A DNA stretch of 32,000 nucleotides, from the NCBI GenBank assembly GCA_934476085.1, contig CAKSNE010000002.1, forward strand, positions 28,188 through 60,187. Reading direction: 5' to 3'. The stretch comes from an uncultured Eubacteriales bacterium. GTDB taxonomy: Bacteria > Bacillota > Clostridia > Oscillospirales > Acutalibacteraceae. The first letter of the stretch is position 1. Each line of letters begins with the position of its first letter. A model generated the notes under the pieces. It saw only the letters and a list, made by a program, of their open reading frames with translations. It was not told where the DNA came from and searched no databases. Shown one piece after another: positions 2,268-32,000 of the stretch. The position numbers and the translations under genes were made by a program.

Positions 2268-2293
2268 GTAGGGCGTGACGACCCGGCACGCCG
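2268..2293 (+). repeat. REP hairpin, variant a (GTAG head, GGCGTG/CACGCC stem)
   Basis: GTAGGGCGTGACGACCCGGCACGCCG is identical to 31593..31618. Confidence 0.9.
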
Positions 2294-2343: not shown

Positions 2344-2370
2344 GTAGGGTGGGGGCTTGGCTAAACGCCG
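2344..2370 (+). repeat. REP hairpin, degenerate variant b
   Basis: GTAGGGTGGGGGCTTGGCTAAACGCCG is a decayed form of GTAGGGCGGGGGCTTGCTCCCGCCG. It has the same 5' linker (ATATTCATCGTT) as the copy at 31675. Confidence 0.7.
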
Positions 2371-2700: not shown

Positions 2701-2726
2701 CGGCGTGCCGAGTCGTCACGCCCTAC
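2701..2726 (-). repeat. REP hairpin, variant a
   Basis: The reverse complement is GTAGGGCGTGACGACTCGGCACGCCG, one loop substitution away from 2268..2293. Confidence 0.85.
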
Positions 2727-2833
2727 GGAGCGAGTTGAAATGAATCCCACCGAGTTTTGCTCATTAGAATGAATCCCACCGTCTTGCTTTTCAAGCAATC
2801 CACCTCCCTTTGACAAGGGAGGCTCAATAGGTG

Positions 2834-2858
2834 CGGCGGCACCAAGGCACCGCCCTAC
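2834..2858 (-). repeat. REP hairpin, variant c
   Basis: The reverse complement is GTAGGGCGGTGCCTTGGTGCCGCCG. It has the same length (25), head, tail and CTTG loop as variant b, with altered upper-stem pairs. It is preceded by the linker CTATGCGACCATAATATC, as is the copy at 8223. Confidence 0.85.
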
Positions 2859-8188: not shown

Positions 8189-8222
8189 TTTGATGAATGA
8201 TTTTCTATGCGACCATAATATC

Positions 8223-8249
8223 GTAGGGCGTGACGACCACGGCACGCCG
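8223..8249 (+). repeat. REP hairpin, variant a
   Basis: GTAGGGCGTGACGACCACGGCACGCCG, preceded by the linker CTATGCGACCATAATATC (8205..8222). Confidence 0.85.
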
Positions 8250-8270: not shown

Positions 8271-8418
8271 TTGTTAGGTTGACGATAGGTAGTTTCAAAT
8301 TAAAGCTTTATTGTAACTTCTATCTTTCATGCGCTCAAGCCGTGCAGGCTGTCCTTTTGTCATTTCACAAAAGGACAAAAAGAAATTCAAGGAGTTCCTT
8401 GAAAATCCCGAACGCTTT
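8271..8418 (+). repeat. M4 element, copy B
   Basis: See 2519..2680. Hairpins are GTCCTTTTGT-CATTTC-ACAAAAGGAC (8351..8376) and TTCAAGGA-GT-TCCTTGAA (8386..8403). Confidence 0.85.
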
Positions 8419-8431
8419 ATTTTCGCCTACT

Positions 8432-8503
8432 ATCGTCGGCAACCAAACCAAGCTGTTAGGGTGAGTAGACATACTTTAACCTAACAACTTTATGGGTGCG
8501 GAA
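8432..8503 (-). repeat. M1 element, copy B1
   Basis: The reverse complement aligns with 2099..2170 with about 8 substitutions. The M1-M4 junction (GCCGACGATAGTAGGCGAAAA) is the same as in cluster C. Confidence 0.85.
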
Positions 8504-8570
8504 TTAAAAATATTTACTATTTTAAATATTTATATTATAATGTAAATATACTACTTTTGGGGGCGATTTT

Positions 8571-21179: not shown

Positions 21180-21203
21180 ATCAACACACTCCTAATAAAT
21201 TTG

Positions 21204-21716
21204 TTATAAAAAATATTTATCTAATTCCCATTTTATCGGGTTTTCATCAATGTATTTTCTTGTTTCTAAAAGCTCTTGCTCATTACGAATAATATGGTCA
21301 TAATATGAAGTTTGAAATACCTTTCTCCCGGTTACATTATCCATTTTATTAATCAACCTTGTAGTCAAAGATTTATATGAACAAATTACATTATTTAATG
21401 TAGGGCGGGGGCTTGCTCCCGCCGTCTCTTTTATTTCAATAATTATATGAATATGATTAGGCATAATAACATAATAATCTACTTTTATATTGTTATACCG
21501 TTTTTCCAAATCAAATAACTGTTGTTCTGCAATCTTACCATATCTAGTTAAATTAATTGTATATTCTCTTTTGGCGGGAGCAAGCCCCCGCCCTACGATT
21601 TTTGATAAAATTTTTACTCTTTTTTCAGTACATACAGTTACAAAATAATATCCGTTTTGACTGTAATCATACTCTCTTAATCTAGTATGCTTTCGATTTG
21701 AAAGTTTTTCTCTCAT
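21204..21716 (-). CDS. REP-associated tyrosine transposase-like protein (RAYT; IS200/IS605 TnpA-type Y1 HUH nuclease)
   Basis: 170 aa. The HUH motif is MPNHIHIII (H88-I-H90). Candidate catalytic Tyr lies in QTSYYDHIIRNEQEL, and the C-terminus has YIDENPIKW. The N-terminus REYDYSQNGYYFVTVCT is typical of this standalone transposase subfamily (COG1943-like, from memory). It is a single gene with no TnpB partner. Confidence 0.8.
   Translation of the reverse strand: MREKLSNRKHTRLREYDYSQNGYYFVTVCTEKRVKILSKIVGRGLAPAKREYTINLTRYGKIAEQQLFDLEKRYNNIKVDYYVIMPNHIHIIIEIKETAGASPRPTLNNVICSYKSLTTRLINKMDNVTGRKVFQTSYYDHIIRNEQELLETRKYIDENPIKWELDKYFL
21400..21424 (+). repeat. REP hairpin variant b, located inside the RAYT coding sequence
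   Basis: GTAGGGCGGGGGCTTGCTCCCGCCG is 25/25 identical to 31675..31699. On the coding strand it is read in frame as TAGASPRPT (residues 98-106). Confidence 0.9.
21573..21596 (-). repeat. REP hairpin variant b, inverted copy inside the RAYT coding sequence
   Basis: The reverse complement is GTAGGGCGGGGGCTTGCTCCCGCC, 24/24 with 21400..21423. It is read in frame as VGRGLAPA (residues 41-48). The upstream ATC matches the ATCGTAGGGCG context of the intergenic copies. Confidence 0.9.
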
Positions 21717-21720
21717 TCTA

Positions 21721-23553
21721 TTATTTGTTTCTGTGTAATTGTTTCATTCTTTGTTCTTTTGAAAGAATCATTTTACGAAGACGGATTGATTCAGGTGTAA
21801 CTTCAACCAACTCATCATCTTTAATAAACTCAAGCGAACGCTCGAGCGATAAAATTGATGGCGGTGTCAAACGAAGTGCCTCATCAGAGCCTGAAGCTCT
21901 TGTATTTGTAATATGTTTTTTCTTACAAACATTACAAACAATATCTTCGGCTTTTGGATTTTCACCAACAATTTGTCCTTCGTAAACTTCAACACCGGGA
22001 CCAACAAATAAACGGCCTCTGTCTTGTGTATTAAACAAGCCGTAGCTTGAAGTAGTACCTGTTTCAAATGAAACGATTGAACCTGAATTTCTTTGTTCAA
22101 AGTCGCCCTTGTAAGGTTCATAATCCGAGAAAATATGGTTCATAATACCGTTACCGTTTGTATCTGACAAAAATTCAGAACGATAACTCATAAGTCCACG
22201 GGCAGGAATCTTAAACTCAAGATGAGTCATACCTGTTTCACGAGTACCCATATTAATAAGTTCGGCTTTTCTGTTGCCGAGTTTCTCCATAACTGCACCA
22301 ACATAGCTTTCCGGAACTTCGATCATCAAAAGCTCGATAGGCTCAAGTCTTTCGCCGTTTGGACCTTGTTTAAAGATAACCTGCGGACGAGATACCTGGA
22401 ATTCATAGCCTTCACGACGCATTGTTTCAATTAAGATCGAAAGATGCAATTCACCACGGCCCGAAACCTTAAATGTATCAGCTGAATCGGTTTCTTCAAC
22501 ACGCATTGAAACATTGGTTTCAACTTCTTTAAAAAGACGGTCACGCAAGTTTCTTGAAGTAACAAATTTACCCTCTTTACCTGCAAAAGGAGAATCATTT
22601 ACCATAAAGTTCATTGCGATTGTAGGCTCATCAATTTTAACAAAAGCCATTTTTTCAACATGTTCAGGATCGCAAGCGGTTTCACCGATATTAAGATCTT
22701 CAATACCCGAAACACAAACAATATCGCCGGCAACGGCGCTTTCTGTTTCTACTCTTTTTAATCCGTCATAAGTATAAAGGCGAGAAATTTTAACATTTTC
22801 TTGAGTATCGTCTTGTTTGCAAAGAACAACTCTATCATTTACATGAACAACGCCACGCTCAACACGACCGATACCGATTCTGCCTACATAATCATCATAA
22901 TCAATATTTGAGAATAATAATTGTAACGGACCGTTTGGATCATTAGTCGGTTCAGGAGCTTCATTAATAATCATATCGAGAAGCGGTCTTAAATCAGTAC
23001 CCTTTTCATTTGGATCAAGTGAAGCATAACCGTCTCTGCCTGATGCGTAAACAACAGGAAACTCAAGCTGATCATCATCTGCACCAAGCTCGATAAATAA
23101 ATCAAGAACTTCGTCAATAACTTCTTCAGGACGTGCACCGTCACGGTCAATTTTATTAACAACAACGATAGGTTTTTTACCGAGACCGAGTGCTTTTTTA
23201 AGTACAAAACGGGTTTGAGGCATACAGCCTTCAAAAGCATCTACCAATAATAAAACTGCGTCTACCATTAAAAGAATACGCTCAACCTCACCGCCAAAAT
23301 CGGCATGACCCGGAGTATCAACAATGTTGATTTTATAATCTTTATAAGCAATACTTGTGTTTTTAGCAAGAATTGTGATACCTCTTTCACGCTCAAGGTC
23401 ATTAGAGTCCATAACTCTTTCTGCGACTGCTTCATTTTCTCTAAAAGTGCCCGATTGTTTTAACATCTCATCAACGAGTGTTGTTTTACCGTGGTCAACG
23501 TGGGCAATAATCGCAACATTTCTTAATTTTTTTGTGTCTGTAACATTAGTCAT
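21721..23553 (-). CDS. typA: Translational GTPase TypA/BipA
   Basis: 610 aa. G1 is AHVDHGKTT and G3 is DTPGHADF. The domain order is EF-G-like. Confidence 0.95.
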
Positions 23554-26297: not shown

Positions 26298-28796
26298 TTA
26301 TTCTTCTGTAATTTCAGTTTCTGTCGATTCAACAGCTTCGCTGTTTTCTTCATCAGCTTTAACTTCTTCAGGTTGCTCTTCTTCCTTATCGGTAATAGAC
26401 ATTGTAATAATTCTTTCGCCGTCTTTTACTTTCATAACTCGAACACCCTTTGAAGGACGGGCAAATTTTGAAATAGAATCAGCAGAAATACGAATTACAA
26501 TACCGTCTGATGAAATCAAGATTACATCTTTATCTTCATCAACCATAGCAATTTGAGCAACATCGCCGAATTTTGCAACACGATAATTGGTAATACCTTT
26601 ACCGCCACGGGATTGAACACGATAATCATCAACGCTCGACTGTCTTCCGTAACCGGTTTCGGTAATTGTAAGAAGTTGTTTATTTTCTTCAACAACTGCC
26701 ATTCCGATAACTTCGTCATCGGGTTTCAGCGTAATCGCCTTAACACCACGAGCGGTACGGCCAAGCGGACGGGCATCATTTTCATTAAAGCGAATTGCCA
26801 TACCCTTTTTAGTAGCAACGATAAGATCGTCATCACCGTCAGTCATATAAGCAAATCTTAACTCATCGCCTTCATCAAGGGTAACCGCATTAACGCCGCC
26901 CTTACGGTTTGTTCTGTAAACAGATAATTGTGAACGCTTAACAACACCGTTTTTAGTACCCATAACGATATATTTATCATCATCAAACTCGCCCATTTTA
27001 AGCATAGCTGTTACACGCTCACCTGATTCAAGCGGCAAGAGATTGACAATATTAAGACCTTTTGAAGTACGGCTTCCTTCCGGTACAACATAAGCCTTAT
27101 TATGATAAACTCGACCGTAATTTGTGAAGTAGAATACATGGTCATGAGTTGAACAGATAAACATATGCTCGGCATAATCTTCTTCACGGGTAGTCATACC
27201 CTTTAAGCCTCTGCCACCACGATTTTGAGCATGGTAAGTATCAACCGGCAAACGCTTAATATAACCCATTTTTGTCAAAGTTAAAACGCAGTCTTCTTCA
27301 GGAATTAAATCTTCAATATCAACTTCGCCTTCAACATTTGTAATTTCAGTGCGTCTGTCATCGGCATATTTATCACGAATTTTAAGTGCTTCGTCTTTAA
27401 CGATTTCAAGAATTCTTGTTTCATTAGCAAGAATATCTTTATAGTCTGCAATTTTTTCCTGTAAAGCTAACAATTCGCTTTCAATTTTTTCTCTTTCCAA
27501 GCCTGTCAATTGAGCCAAACGCATATCAACAATATGCTTAGCTTGAACTTCATCAATAGGAAAACGCTCCATCAAGCTTTCTTTAGCTTCATTAACAGTT
27601 TTTGAAGCACGAATTATTTTAATAACTTCATCAATATAATCAAGAGCTACCTTTAAACCTTCTAAAATATGCTCTCTGTCTTGAGCTTTTTTAAGGTCAA
27701 AACGAGTTCTACGCTCGATAATGCTCTCTTGATATTTAACATAGTTTGATAAAACATCTTTAAGCGATAATGTTTTTGGAACACCGTCAACAAGTGCAAG
27801 CATTATAACGCCAAAAGTAGATTGAAGTTGAGTATAAGAATAAAGTTTATTTAAAACAACTTGTGGATTAACATCTTTTTTAAGCTCGACAACTACTCTC
27901 ATACCATTGCGGTTTGAATAGTCGGCAACATCATCAATACCTTCGATTTTTTTAGAATCAGCAAGGTCAACAATTGTTTTAACAAGCTTCTTTTTATTAA
28001 CCTGATAAGGAATTTCGGTGATAATAATTCTGAATTTATTTGTTTTTTCTTCTTCGATTTCGGCTCTGCCTCGAACACAGATTTTGCCTCGACCGGTTGC
28101 ATAAGCAGCTCTAATACCGCTTCTGCCCATAATAATACCGCCTGTCGGAAAGTCAGGGCCCGGTAAATATTCCATCATTTCTTCAACAGAAATATCTTTA
28201 TTATCAATATAAGCTACCATACAATCAATAACTTCTGCAAGATTATGAGGCGGAATATTTGTTGTCATACCAACAGCGATACCCATTGAACCGTTAACCA
28301 AAAGGCTAGGAATTCTTGATGGCAAAGTTACAGGTTCTTTCAAACGGTCATCATAGTTAGGTACAAAATCAACTGTATCTTTTTCAATATCCGTAAGCAT
28401 TTCAACTGCCATTTTGCTCATTCTGGCTTCGGTATAACGATAAGCAGCGGCAGGGTGACCGTCAACAGAACCAAAGTTACCGTGACCGTCAATCATTTCA
28501 TATCGCATTGAAAAGTCCTGTGCCATACGAACGAGTGCATCATAAACAGAGGCGTCGCCATGTGGATGGTAAGAACCGAGCACCGCACCGACGATATCGG
28601 CACATTTACGATATGCATTATCAGGAGTTAAGTTTCTTTCATGCATTGTATAAAGAATTCTTCTGTGAACAGGTTTTAAACCGTCACGAACATCAGGCAA
28701 CGCACGAGAAACGATAACCGACATTGAATATTCCAAAAAGGCTTTTTCGACTTCATCGGAAATTTCTATTGGAATAATTTTTTCATCTAAACTCAA
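26298..28796 (-). CDS. gyrA: DNA gyrase subunit A
   Basis: 832 aa with a TTG start. The QRDR reads YHPHGDASVYDALVRMAQ and the active-site region AAAYRYTEARM. The C-terminal tail is acidic. Confidence 0.97.
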   Translation of the reverse strand: MSLDEKIIPIEISDEVEKAFLEYSMSVIVSRALPDVRDGLKPVHRRILYTMHERNLTPDNAYRKCADIVGAVLGSYHPHGDASVYDALVRMAQDFSMRYEMIDGHGNFGSVDGHPAAAYRYTEARMSKMAVEMLTDIEKDTVDFVPNYDDRLKEPVTLPSRIPSLLVNGSMGIAVGMTTNIPPHNLAEVIDCMVAYIDNKDISVEEMMEYLPGPDFPTGGIIMGRSGIRAAYATGRGKICVRGRAEIEEEKTNKFRIIITEIPYQVNKKKLVKTIVDLADSKKIEGIDDVADYSNRNGMRVVVELKKDVNPQVVLNKLYSYTQLQSTFGVIMLALVDGVPKTLSLKDVLSNYVKYQESIIERRTRFDLKKAQDREHILEGLKVALDYIDEVIKIIRASKTVNEAKESLMERFPIDEVQAKHIVDMRLAQLTGLEREKIESELLALQEKIADYKDILANETRILEIVKDEALKIRDKYADDRRTEITNVEGEVDIEDLIPEEDCVLTLTKMGYIKRLPVDTYHAQNRGGRGLKGMTTREEDYAEHMFICSTHDHVFYFTNYGRVYHNKAYVVPEGSRTSKGLNIVNLLPLESGERVTAMLKMGEFDDDKYIVMGTKNGVVKRSQLSVYRTNRKGGVNAVTLDEGDELRFAYMTDGDDDLIVATKKGMAIRFNENDARPLGRTARGVKAITLKPDDEVIGMAVVEENKQLLTITETGYGRQSSVDDYRVQSRGGKGITNYRVAKFGDVAQIAMVDEDKDVILISSDGIVIRISADSISKFARPSKGVRVMKVKDGERIITMSITDKEEEQPEEVKADEENSEAVESTETEITEE

Positions 28797-28798
28797 AT

Positions 28799-29308
28799 TT
28801 ATTCACCTATCTTTTCTTGATTTTCATCATTTATATCAGCTAAATAATTTAAAACTTTTTCAAAAGGCGATTTTACTTCGCCAACCAAAACACGTTTTGG
28901 AATTGCCATTAAGCGACCGTCATCAAGCGCAATAATAACTTCTAAATCGTTTTCTAATATTTTTAAAACATCTTGTTTTTCAATATTCCAATTTGCTTCA
29001 TAAGCTTCAACAACTACATTTATATATGTATCATAAGCGGTAAGAACGGTAAGTTCACCGGTTGTTGAACCACGAACAGTATTTTCTTCATGTTTTTTAT
29101 AGCCGAAATAAGCAAACAAGTTTGCAAAACCCAAAGCTACTATTATTGAATAAGTTGTAGGCTCGCCGGGAACAAAAGTTAAAACACAAAATACAACAGA
29201 AAATACTAAAATTAAAATCATTTTCTTTTTATAAGGCTTTAACACCCCCGCGGTAAACAGTGCTTGTTTTACTTCATCAGCAGATAAAATATAAGAAATA
29301 CTATTCAT
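28799..29308 (-). CDS. Two-TM membrane protein (YcxB-like, tentative) encoded between gyrB and gyrA
   Basis: 169 aa. There are two hydrophobic helices (residues ~30-47 and 52-69) followed by a soluble domain. AAGGAG RBS. Its stop lies 2 nt before the gyrA TTG start. Confidence 0.5.
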   Translation of the reverse strand: MNSISYILSADEVKQALFTAGVLKPYKKKMILILVFSVVFCVLTFVPGEPTTYSIIVALGFANLFAYFGYKKHEENTVRGSTTGELTVLTAYDTYINVVVEAYEANWNIEKQDVLKILENDLEVIIALDDGRLMAIPKRVLVGEVKSPFEKVLNYLADINDENQEKIGE

Positions 29309-29347
29309 TATTACTCCTTTTTAATTTTAAAAGTTTATAGTTTATAA

Positions 29348-31312
29348 TTAAAAATCGAGATTTTCAACAAATTGAGCGTTTTCTTCAATAAACTTTCTTC
29401 TAGGTTCAACTTCGTCACCCATCAAAAGTGTAAACACTCCGTCTGCACGCTCAGCGTCAGACATTGTAACTTTTCTCATTGTTCTGAAAGCCGGATCCAT
29501 AGTAGTTTCCCAAAGTTGTTCCGGATCCATCTCACCAAGACCTTTATAACGCTGAATTGAAGCATTTCCGCCTAATTGAGCATTATACTGATCTCTTTCT
29601 TCTTCATTAAACGCATATTTTTTAACTTTACCTTTTTTAACTTCAAAAAGAGGCGGTTGAGCTAAATAAACATGGCCTTGAGAAATAAGTTCAGGCATAT
29701 ATCTAAAGAAAAATGTCAAAAGAAGTGTTCTGATATGAGCACCGTCGACATCGGCATCGGCCATAATAATAATTTTGTCATAACGAAGCTTTGAAATATC
29801 AAAATTATCGCCGATACCTGTTCCGAGAGCTACTACAACAGGAGTTAATTTATCATTACCGTAAACTTTATCAACTCTTGCTTTTTCAACATTAAGCATT
29901 TTACCCCAAAGCGGTAAAATAGCCTGAAAGTTTGAATCACGACCTTTTGATGCAGAACCGCCCGCAGAGTCACCCTCTACGATATAAAGCTCTGTACGGC
30001 TGGCATCTTTTGAAATACAATCATCAAGTTTTTCAGGCATTCTTGATTTACCGATACCTGAAGATTTTGTACGCTCAAGCTCTCTTGCTTTTTGAGCTTT
30101 TTCTCTCGCATTAGATGCACTCATTACCTTTGAAATAAGGATTTTTGCAATTTGAGGATTATTTTCAAGATAGTCATTTAAATTTTCGGTCATTGCATTT
30201 GAAACCAATGTTCCGATATAAGTATTACCGAGTTTTGCTTTAGTTTGTCCTTCAAACTGTGCATCGGTAAGCTTAACTGAAATTACGGCAATAAGGCCTT
30301 CTTGAACATCTTCGCCTTTAAAATTAGAATCATTATCTTTTAAAAACTTAAATTTTCTTGCATAGCTGTTAATAACTCTTGTAAGTGATGTTTTAAAAGC
30401 TGATTCATGAGTACCGCCGTCAACGGTATGAATATTATTTGCAAAAGATATAATATTTGTATCATAACCTGTATTATAAAGCATAGCAATCTCAACCATT
30501 GCGTCGCCTTTTGTTGCTGATACATAAATAGGCTCATCAAAGAATTTATCTGCACGCTTTTTCTCTAAAATAAACTCACAGTAAGAGCGGATACCGCCTT
30601 CAAAATGAAGAACATCTTTTCTTAAATTACCGTCATCATCTGTTTCGCCGTCGTGACGTTTATCTTCAAGATTAATTCTGATACCGGCATTTAAGAAAGC
30701 TTGTTCACGAAGTCTTGTCAACAAAATATCATAATCGTATCTTGTAGTTTCTGTAAAAATATCAGCACTAGGTTTGAAAGTAACTGTTGTACCTGTTTCA
30801 TCAGTATCTCCGATAACCTTTAAATCGCCAACAGGATTTCCCTTTTCAAAACGCTGAAAATGTCTTTTTCCGTCTTTTCTTACTTCAACTTCAAGCCAAT
30901 CAGAAAGAGCATTTACAACTGATGAACCAACACCGTGCAAACCGCCCGAAACCTTATAGCCCGAACCACCGAATTTACCGCCGGCATGAAGTACAGTAAA
31001 TACAACTGTAACCGCAGGAAGTCCCATTTTTGCTTGAATATCAACAGGAATACCACGTCCGTTATCAGAAACTCTGATAATATCGTCGTCAAGTATTTCA
31101 ACATCAATATCTGAACAATATCCGGCAAGTGCTTCATCAATAGAGTTATCAACAATTTCATAAACCAAATGATGAAGTCCTCGTTCGCCTGTTGAACCGA
31201 TATACATACCCGGTCTTTTTCTTACAGCTTCAAGTCCTTCTAATACCTGTATCGCAGACGCGTCGTATTCTTCTTCAACAACAGTGTTCATTACATTTTC
31301 GTTATTATCCAA
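29348..31312 (-). CDS. gyrB: DNA gyrase subunit B
   Basis: 654 aa. The TTG start lies 7 nt after GAGGA. It contains [16 protein letters not shown] (GHKL ATPase), the Toprim motif EGDSAGG and [12 protein letters not shown]. Confidence 0.97.
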
Positions 31313-31340
31313 ACCTATTTCCTCTTTTCAATATTTTTTT

Positions 31341-31570
31341 CATAGCTCCCATCAAGTTGTTAGGTTAAAGTATGCCAACTCCCCCTAACAGCCCGAAATG
31401 GTAACCGTATATTTTTTTAATTCATAGCTCCCATCAAGTTGTTAGGTTAAAGTATATCTACTCCCCCTAACAGCCCGAAATAGTAGCCGTATCTTTTTTA
31501 AATTCATAGCTCCCATCGGGTTTTTAAGTTAAAGTATGCTAACTCTCCCTAACAGCTGGGTTTGGTTACA
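31341..31570 (+). repeat. Tandem array of three M1 copies (starts 31341, 31423, 31505; period 82 bp)
   Basis: The unit CATAGCTCCCATC...GTTAGGTTAAAGTAT...CCCTAACAGC...GGTAACCGTAT recurs, separated by T-rich junctions. The third copy is more diverged in its 5' arm. Confidence 0.9.
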
Positions 31571-31592
31571 ACACAATCACACATTTAACATT

Positions 31593-31628
31593 GTAGGGCG
31601 TGACGACCCGGCACGCCGTTTGCCCTAC
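31593..31628 (+). repeat. REP hairpin variant a plus inverted head fragment
   Basis: GTAGGGCGTGACGACCCGGCACGCCG (31593..31618) is 26/26 identical to 2268..2293. It is followed by TTT and GCCCTAC (31622..31628), the reverse complement of the head. Confidence 0.9.
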
Positions 31629-31674: not shown

Positions 31675-31699
31675 GTAGGGCGGGGGCTTGCTCCCGCCG
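31675..31699 (+). repeat. REP hairpin variant b (intergenic reference copy)
   Basis: GTAGGGCGGGGGCTTGCTCCCGCCG has an 8-bp stem (one G-T pair) and a CTTG loop. It is identical to the copy inside the RAYT gene. Confidence 0.9.
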
Positions 31700-31711
31700 T
31701 TCTTGTTTCGG

Positions 31712-31832
31712 GTGAAAAATAAATTATATATTAACACGCTTTATGCGTGTGAAAAAGCATATCAAGTCACAATCAGCATTATGACGCTTTTCAATAAAGC
31801 TACAAGTTTTAGTTCGCTGTGCGGTCATAATG
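31712..31832 (+). repeat. M3 element, copy C
   Basis: 121 nt, collinear with 2383..2503. The core 31750..31773 differs completely from that of copy A. Confidence 0.85.
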
Positions 31833-31833
31833 T

Positions 31834-31912
31834 TTTTTAGTTCCGCTCCCATTAGGTTGTTAGGTTAAAGTATGCTAACTCTCCCTAACAGTTGGGTTTG
31901 GTTGCCGACGAT
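31834..31912 (+). repeat. M1 element, copy C4
   Basis: 58-nt exact identity with 2092..2149, then 2 mismatches out to GCCGACGAT. Confidence 0.9.
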
Positions 31913-31913
31913 A

Positions 31914-32000
31914 GTAGGCGAAAAATAAGCGTTCGGGATTTTCAAGTATCACCTTGAATTTCTTTTCGTCCTTTTGTGAAATGACAAAAGGACTGCCTGT
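31914..32000 (-). repeat. M4 element, copy C (truncated by the window end)
   Basis: It starts with GTAGGCGAAAAATAAGCGTTCGGG, the same junction as in cluster B. The GTCCTTTTGT/ACAAAAGGAC hairpin is intact. The second hairpin keeps 6 of 8 bp. Confidence 0.8.

Follow-up and report, generated by a model that had tools for sequence, protein, structure and literature searches.

We examined a 32,000-nucleotide (nt) stretch of the 113-kb metagenomic contig CAKSNE010000002.1 from an uncultured Eubacteriales bacterium of the family Acutalibacteraceae, referred to here as the window, with a G+C content of ~35%. Between bipA and an alpha/beta-hydrolase gene, the window carries a single copy of a gene resembling those of the REP-associated tyrosine transposases (RAYTs), where REP stands for repetitive extragenic palindrome. 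Inside this open reading frame (ORF) lie two inverted, in-frame copies of the 24-mer GTAGGGCGGGGGCTTGCTCCCGCC, a GTAG-headed REP, one on either side of the HUH motif. We call these copies arm 1 and arm 2 and the REP type A. The features on which the analysis rests are the following.

21204..21716, minus strand: RAYT-like Y1/HUH tyrosine nuclease gene of 170 amino acids, based on the ORF, profile matches, and an AlphaFold2 (AF2) model.
21573..21596, minus strand: arm 1, a forward REP on the coding strand, encoding VGRGLAPA (residues 41-48) at the hairpin tip between beta1 and alphaA.
21400..21424, plus strand: arm 2, a forward REP on the non-coding strand; its antisense translation, (T)AGASPRPT (residues 98-106), falls in the loop that joins the HUH strand to alphaC.
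21447..21455, minus strand: codons of the HUH motif H88-I-H90, read from the sequence and lying between the arms; H88 and H90 are invariant in the alignment.
21252..21254, minus strand: candidate catalytic tyrosine Y155 in the motif YIDENP (Y---NP); Y155, N159, and P160 are invariant in the alignment.
31675..31699, plus strand: intergenic type-A REP, 25/25 identical to arm 2, upstream of gyrB.

The ORF protein scored 32.7 bits against Pfam Y1_Tnp (PF01797), above the curated cutoff of 23. Its best-scoring NCBIfam family was REP_Tyr_transpos, at 71.9 bits under a curated cutoff of 80, and it reached 20.3 bits against a cutoff of 55 for transpos_IS200. A Foldseek search with the AF2 model (pLDDT, the model's confidence score, 80.9) returned REP-bound E. 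coli TnpAREP (4ER8) as the top match with a TM score of 0.62, followed by ISDra2 TnpA and IS608 TnpA. In the model, Y155 sits on helix 146-165, and the Y---NP signature of RAYT/TnpAREP class 2 (PMC6006769) is present as YIDENP. The protein thus has the profile match, the HUH motif with a single tyrosine on a C-terminal helix, and the predicted fold that define the Y1 HUH transposase superfamily. Its gene begins and ends in a tight array, 4 nt after the bipA stop and 24 nt before the hydrolase gene. Wedged in this way, it is flanked by nothing, and the two gaps hold no REP, so that the gene lacks the flanking REPs of a REPtron. A preliminary description of the window, made from its letters alone, had already placed both REP copies inside the gene and none beside it, and this was borne out.

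The same description had reported that the in-gene and intergenic 25-mers are identical (25/25), that the 24-mer recurs exactly on the opposite strand at 21573..21596, that both copies keep the frame and are translated as VGRGLAPA and TAGASPRPT, that the 148 bp between them encode H88-I-H90, and that both GTAG heads face outward. All of these observations were reproduced. The 25-mer GTAGGGCGGGGGCTTGCTCCCGCCG occurs with no mismatch at 21400..21424 and 31675..31699 on the plus strand and with one mismatch, at its 25th base, at 21572..21596 on the minus strand; dinucleotide shuffles predicted 0.00 chance matches. An "ATC" 5' context said to be shared with intergenic copies is indeed common to copies of two further REP types, B and C, at 8220 and 2858, but the type-A copy at 31675 has GTT before its GTAG. 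Arm 1 forms a DNA hairpin with an 8-bp stem. Both arms map to low-confidence loops of the AF2 model (pLDDT <50 for residues 44-49 in arm 1 and 99-102 in arm 2), in agreement with the surface-loop placement first suggested. The in-gene inverted REP pair is therefore confirmed. In the window, a longer inverted repeat (41 nt at 80%) that continues past the 24-mer was judged to be chance AT-rich similarity.

To see what is conserved in the arms, we compared synonymous sites in ten type-A genes whose proteins are 45-76% identical, restricting the count to columns where the amino acid is invariant. Inside the arms the majority codon accounted for 95% of cases, and elsewhere for 54% (Mann-Whitney p=4e-7). 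Free variation was seen at the first nucleotide outside the REP, the third base of codon T106. Codons are thus frozen inside the REP and free outside it, and conservation acts at the nucleotide level and ends at the REP boundary. Within single genes, arm-to-arm mismatches were absent from the GTAG head (0/222) and affected 4.8% of the stem and 19.4% of the loop. Among stem-pair differences between arms, 18 were compensated within the arm, 7 gave a wobble pair, and 1 was broken. Compensation within an arm identifies the individual GTAG-hairpin, and not the 24-bp arm-arm duplex, as the constrained unit. The GTAG-hairpin is reportedly the unit recognized by TnpAREP in the 4ER8 structure. It is likewise documented as the recognition unit of TnpAREP elsewhere (PMC8266576). 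The encoded arm peptides differ freely between REP types, which together with the low confidence of the loops argues against a strong role at the protein level. Judged from these substitution patterns, we showed that each arm is held as an individual hairpin at the nucleotide level, not as a peptide and not as half of a duplex.

The arrangement extends well beyond this gene. A 90%-clustered database holds 6143 relatives of the 170-amino-acid protein, and 22,839 clusters of a 50%-clustered library match it at E≤1e-3. We scanned genomes with search patterns that left out the arms and retrieved 80 homologous loci from Clostridia and other phyla; because the patterns excluded the arms, this set is unbiased for them. 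GTAGGG-headed hairpins occurred within the gene at 73/80 loci, with two or more, in the same pair of loops, at 64 of them. In 61 genes the canonical pair was present, sense in the beta1-alphaA loop and antisense past the HUH strand, and position, orientation, and reading frame of the arms were fixed among genes of 40-60% identity. Sixteen arm types were found among 49 genes, with peptide pairs as different as VGQGLAPA/AGASPCPT, VGEGLAPP/GGASPSPT, VGDGLPVP/GTGNPSPT, VGEDIILP/GRIISSPT, and VGAIHESP/AIRESPLQ. Within a gene, the arms differed on average at 1.35 of 24 positions, compared to 9.5 between genes. Both segments were present in 71 of 150 representatives of 50%-identity clusters, and in 47 of these 71 the arm peptides were compatible with reverse-complementary DNA (6.6±2.2 with partner arms shuffled). 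From this sequence record, we showed that the two arms of a gene change together. The preliminary description had also stated that short inserts rich in G, A, P, and R are frequent at these two sites in homologues, and this proved correct in the alignments and at the 80 loci.

Several homologues are rearranged at the arms. In-frame tandem duplications beginning at arm 2 occur in P0007-P0009, P0022, and L022, arm 1 is duplicated in P0073, an additional REP doublet lies in loop 1 of P0122, and P0066 has an insertion inside arm 2. These changes may be signs of activity at the in-gene sites. One lineage (L022 5568-5842; P0007-P0009, P0022, P0032, and related proteins, 198-242 amino acids) has 1-4 in-frame tandem units of 13 or 26 amino acids, each beginning at the arm-2 REP (NEAAGASPRPTIMDIVCAYKSLTTRE), a copy-number-variable expansion seeded at the in-gene hairpin. 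REPs and decayed arms were seen side by side at two loci. At L018 (9525-10043) the arms have decayed to AT-rich sequence (VEQEPTLVE / TAPKENFRTT) with HUH and Y intact, and two type-A REPs lie just downstream; at L006 (10628-10819) a tandem array of five type-A REPs with a 42-nt period directly follows a RAYT gene with a decayed arm 2.

We then asked how arm type relates to the REPs dispersed around the genes, counting an outside hairpin as a match when it differed from the in-gene arm at ≤2 of 22 positions. The share of GTAGGG hairpins outside RAYT genes that matched an arm of their own locus was 53% at distances up to 300 nt and 24% past 1 kb. For arms taken from other loci it was 4-7%, so that own-locus matching was 4-8 times commoner. 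At the level of loci, 21 of 38 contained a match to their own arm, compared to 3.8±1.75 in permutations (maximum, 10), and a flanking REP lay within 300 nt of the gene at 24/80 loci. Non-cognate REPs did not share the lower stem of the local in-gene arm (9% versus 8%) and can therefore be presumed to go with other paralogues. Two or three divergent RAYT paralogues are present at several of the loci, and every one has an arm type of its own. A metagenome scan for the exact type-A 24-mer gave at least 144 occurrences in at least 120 stretches. Among the matches listed, 11/144 fell in RAYT-like ORFs and 133/144 outside RAYT genes; the 24-mer is thus a real dispersed family, common to many organisms. 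Taken together with the identical intergenic copy in the window, these comparisons showed that, as far as sequence can tell, the arms are genuine copies of the enzyme's own cognate GTAG-headed REP, set in two flexible surface loops beside the HUH strand, and that arm type matches the REP family dispersed in the same genome. The preliminary description had reported the first for the window gene and had raised the second as a possibility.

The exact type-A 24-mer also occurs in stop-free frames of 460-960 codons that do not resemble RAYT, in metagenome stretches L099 (3169), L121 (1024), L162 (931), and L170 (9218). Such frames may represent other genes into which a REP has inserted in frame; as GC-rich DNA is common among these contigs, long open frames are weak evidence.

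The most direct view of the coupling came from sister strains of the window's species, whose contigs were picked by their encoding identical GyrB or BipA proteins. For this comparison the remaining REPs of the window are needed.

2268..2292, plus strand: intergenic type-B REP (GTAGGGCGTGACGACCCGGCACGCC), one of four type-B copies.
2702-2726, minus strand; 8223-8248, plus strand; 31593-31617, plus strand: further type-B REPs, the copy at 8223 being equal to arm 2 of the sister strains' alternative RAYT allele.
2833..2858, minus strand: intergenic type-C REP (GTAGGGCGGTGCCTTGGTGCCGCC), single copy in the window.
2344..2370, plus strand: degenerate type-A REP (GTAGGGTGGGGGCTTGGCTAAACGCCG); the equivalent repeat cluster of sister strain L204 has an intact type-A copy.

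The type-B sequence, with its four copies in the window, reads GTAGGGCGTGACGACC(C/AC)GGCACGCC. All of these hairpins with a GTAGGGCG head (types B, C, and degenerate A) lie within complex intergenic repeat clusters. In sister strain L203, as in the window, a type-A copy lies just upstream of gyrB (9701).

The site between bipA and the hydrolase gene was polymorphic in the species, with three states (window 21180-21725 compared to L208 4834-5800 and L211 4834-5330). The first, the window's type-A RAYT, was found in 3 contigs. The second, in ~16 contigs, consists of three repeat modules of ~80 nt, REPs, and a RAYT of 164 amino acids, and the third, in ~8 contigs, has repeat modules and a type-B REP without a RAYT. 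Arm 2 of the 164-amino-acid allele is GTAGGGCGTGACGACCACGGCACGCC, exactly the type-B REP found at 8223 in the window and between genes in the sister strains, while its arm 1 is a subtype of the type-B sequence, compensated within the arm. A search for a RAYT with type-B arms by a synthetic 44-amino-acid query had yielded three unrelated fragments only, and the allele was later found by its context in the sister strains. Over residues 1-133 the identity between the A and B alleles is 43%, and from about codon 135 into the downstream gene their DNA is identical, the mark of a recombination junction. Recombination has therefore swapped a piece that spans the 5' two-thirds of the gene and includes both arms. 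The comparison gives direct evidence for a correspondence between the REP types of one species and the in-gene arms of its RAYT alleles, and allele recombination of this kind gives one mechanism for REP type switching.

The ~80-nt modules (TTAGTTCCGCTCCCAT..GTTAGG..CCTAAC..GGTTGCC) that fill the site in sister strains also occur in the window, at 2092-2252, 31334-31577, and 31834-31913 and, inverted, at 8431-8514. They are often in tandem, each has a conserved minus-strand stem-loop with fold z-scores of -2.5 to -4, and they adjoin REPs in mosaic clusters resembling bacterial interspersed mosaic elements. Other modules of 60-166 nt, 90-95% identical and with the hairpin CCTTTTGTCATTTCACAAAAGG, lie at 2513-2662, 8275-8424 (inverted), and 31920-31999, and also at 2366-2503 / 31695-31832; they are always found alongside REPs and 80-nt modules. 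Rfam and tRNA scans of the window and its repeat clusters gave no match, including for the 80-nt modules in Rfam. The window itself adjoins the replication origin region, with parB-parA ... rnpA-rpmH / dnaA-dnaN-recF-gyrB-gyrA at 26298-31312 and beyond (L202 1-15015). Its cumulative GC skew drops monotonically across most of its length, and the majority of its genes are on the minus strand.

As the overall explanation we favor, as probable on present comparisons, that cognate REPs are embedded in the gene of their own enzyme, are kept there as hairpins, and are matched to the dispersed family. In effect, this would be a REPtron with its REPs within the gene rather than flanking it. The most likely cause would be that RAYT itself, or hairpin-directed recombination on single-stranded DNA during replication, handles the in-gene copies like any other REP. 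Handled in this way, they would stay valid as substrates and would be exchanged at the same pace as the dispersed REPs. Recombination of a whole segment between RAYT alleles may also swap both arms at once. As a result, the enzyme and a seed pair of its substrate would be permanently linked, even in a tight operon without room for flanking REPs, and dual coding could slow the drift of the REP sequence.

Several points weigh against this explanation. At many loci the in-gene type had no further copy outside the gene within 10 kb, and the locus comparisons covered ~20 kb per genome rather than whole genomes. In the window strain, type-A REPs are in no obvious excess over type B. Finally, one or both arms have been lost in L018, L006, and L015, although their HUH and Y motifs are retained, so that an ORF can evidently remain intact without them.

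Among the alternatives, a role in cis-regulation would be compatible with our favored explanation, and we give it a modest chance. The hairpins, or a 24-bp mRNA duplex between them, might throttle translation or mRNA stability, or RAYT might regulate itself by binding its own DNA or mRNA. The predicted mRNA fold, in which the arms pair as a perfect 24-bp stem, is very stable (ΔG -79.7 versus -41 kcal/mol in shuffles, z=-10), and RAYTs are typically kept at low copy number (PMC5581495). However, the 18 changes compensated within an arm break arm-arm pairing, and we therefore rejected the long-range duplex as a selected feature.

It is rather improbable that the arms are neutral passengers, that is, products of random REP transposition tolerated in two permissive loops, without a role and alike only because their insertion was recent. 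Such an origin would fit loops that are disordered in the model, peptides that vary widely among types, and genes that have lost arms; in-frame REP insertion in unrelated genes is known (PMC3733652), and Quentin et al. judged the insertions that they described to be peripheral (PMC6006769). On the other hand, placement and frame do not vary among genes that are 40-60% identical, genes with an identity of only 45-76% still share the same 24-mers down to their frozen synonymous sites, and each arm shows hairpin-preserving compensation. These observations require continuing selection or homogenization rather than a single old neutral insertion.

We consider it quite unlikely that the REP-encoded loops are specificity determinants, with the hairpin-encoded peptide helping to recognize that same hairpin and so coupling substrate to enzyme specificity. 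The loops do vary with REP type, and divergence in arm type is partly paralleled by divergence in the rest of the protein (Mantel r=0.38, 0/2000 permutations as high). Yet proteins with as little as 41% identity can carry identical arms, and proteins as much as 65% identical can carry different ones. The model is of low confidence in these loops, and homology modeling located the beta3-alphaC insertion at a distance from both the catalytic site and the DNA-binding site (PMC6006769).

An excision or inversion switch, in which recombination or Y1 cleavage at the inverted arms would invert or remove the 148-bp catalytic core, had been raised in the preliminary description. The perfect 24-bp inverted repeats that bracket the HUH motif suggest it, but we now regard it as highly improbable. 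All 97 full-length homologous genes were collinear, with no inverted-core or core-deleted variant, in assemblies from which low-frequency population events would escape. The 197-bp arm-core-arm unit, considered as a mobile REP doublet (REPIN), had no dispersed or stand-alone copy in 200 loci, and the only partial match (L049 8727-9057) is a RAYT remnant. Weak antisense tblastn matches (29-37% identity) to RAYT residues 28-113 were found at L001 5737-5943 (plus), L008 1404-1622 (minus), L011 746-1021 (minus), and L022 5558-5776 (minus). Arm symmetry alone explains them, because the two arms give similar peptides on either strand, an artefact that could mislead annotation.

Ordinary protein-level conservation of two motifs that happen to be reverse complements can be dismissed with near certainty: VGRGLAPA and AGASPRPT are indeed the most conserved, nearly invariant stretches among close relatives, and homologues do share the nucleotides, a finding that the preliminary description had named as a sign of such conservation, but the synonymous sites are shared too and are frozen only within the REP boundaries, which rules it out, while peptides are wholly different between arm types with complementarity retained and the same 24-mer is abundant outside genes.

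In-frame REPs in tnpAREP genes were published in 2018, and the basic phenomenon is therefore already known. Quentin et al. (BMC Genomics 19:475; PMC6006769) describe GTAG-headed REPs inside the tnpAREP ORF, with the frame unbroken, in the beta3-alphaC loop between HUH and Y, and their text considers these insertions peripheral, variable, and probably neutral. The window protein resembles their subclass 2.4 (Bertels group 4) as a Y1/HUH class-2 protein with NH[IFV]H and Y---NP motifs whose arm 2 is an in-frame REP between HUH and Y. In a comparison limited to motifs, NH[IFV]H, WQ, and YIxNNP of subclass 2.4 correspond to NHIH, FQ (WQ in many homologues), and YIDENP, which approximates YIxNNP. 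In contrast to subclass 2.4, there are two sites here (beta1-alphaA and beta3-alphaC), occupied by an inverted pair on either side of HUH, each REP is a short single-foot unit of 24-26 nt, and the hosts are Clostridia rather than Cyanobacteria or Bacteroidetes. The text of their Table S1 contains none of the Clostridial REP types described here, and the text of the paper does not report arm-arm covariation, synonymous-site freezing, or tracking of dispersed REPs.

Other systems share parts of the design. The E. coli REPtron (Ton-Hoang 2012; Messing 2012, PDB 4ER8) likewise links the enzyme in cis to inverted copies of its GTAG-hairpin substrate, but those REPs are extragenic and flanking, whereas here none flank and both lie within the ORF. 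Like the Pseudomonas REPIN-RAYT systems (Bertels and Rainey 2011, 2017), ours has an inverted REP doublet, a RAYT paired with its own REP family, and several families per genome; the in-gene doublet differs in having a 148-nt coding spacer and in not being dispersed as a unit, and REP copy numbers are modest. REPs located within other genes (Di Nocera et al. 2013; PMC3733652) and Rickettsia palindromic elements are also in-frame palindromic inserts translated as extra loop residues, but they are sporadic in unrelated genes, while here the host is the gene of the cognate enzyme and the inserts are conserved across a large clade. TnpA of IS200/IS605 insertion sequences (IS608, ISDra2) has the same fold by our predicted model, the same HUH/Y chemistry, and recognition of a hairpin plus guide tetranucleotide. 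Its elements, however, carry subterminal hairpins on one strand outside the gene and are multicopy and identical, often with tnpB; none of this was seen here, and paralogues at the loci of other genomes are divergent, each with its own REP type.

The preliminary description had called the coupling undescribed, which holds for the HUH-bracketing pair and its covariation with REPs and not for in-frame REPs as such; its interpretation as a whole was partly supported. Bertels et al. (2017; PMC5581495) do not mention in-gene REPs. Relative to the text of Quentin et al. (2018), Di Nocera et al. (2013), and Bertels et al. (2017), the new elements are the second insertion site (beta1-alphaA loop), the obligatory pairing of inverted REPs around HUH, compensatory evolution at the hairpin level, frozen synonymous sites, quantitative tracking of dispersed REPs, the Clostridial clade, and the within-species allele swap.

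If cognate REPs are indeed kept as hairpins in the gene of their own enzyme, one further idea becomes attractive. That the gene acts as a master copy, or takes part in gene conversion, was already suggested in the preliminary description and would be plausible. In its full form, which we put forward tentatively and hold to be possible rather than likely, the RAYT gene would be a heritable reference copy of its own substrate, with arms coded twice over, as loop and as hairpin, and inseparable from the enzyme; the gene would seed and repeatedly re-homogenize the dispersed REPs. If true, this would explain why the identical 24-mer persists among species whose RAYT proteins are only ~50% identical, and why a switch of REP type would need both arms to be swapped together, as between the alleles of one species. 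The spread and uniformity of REPs, and the persistence of RAYTs as single-copy, vertically inherited genes, are old open questions. In the present case the ORF of the enzyme itself contains the substrate, whose type varies together with that of the dispersed family in hundreds of genomes. Although the practical impact would be modest, the in-gene arms may serve as a natural, sequence-readable label of RAYT specificity, by which REP families of uncultured Clostridia could be assigned to their enzymes from sequence.

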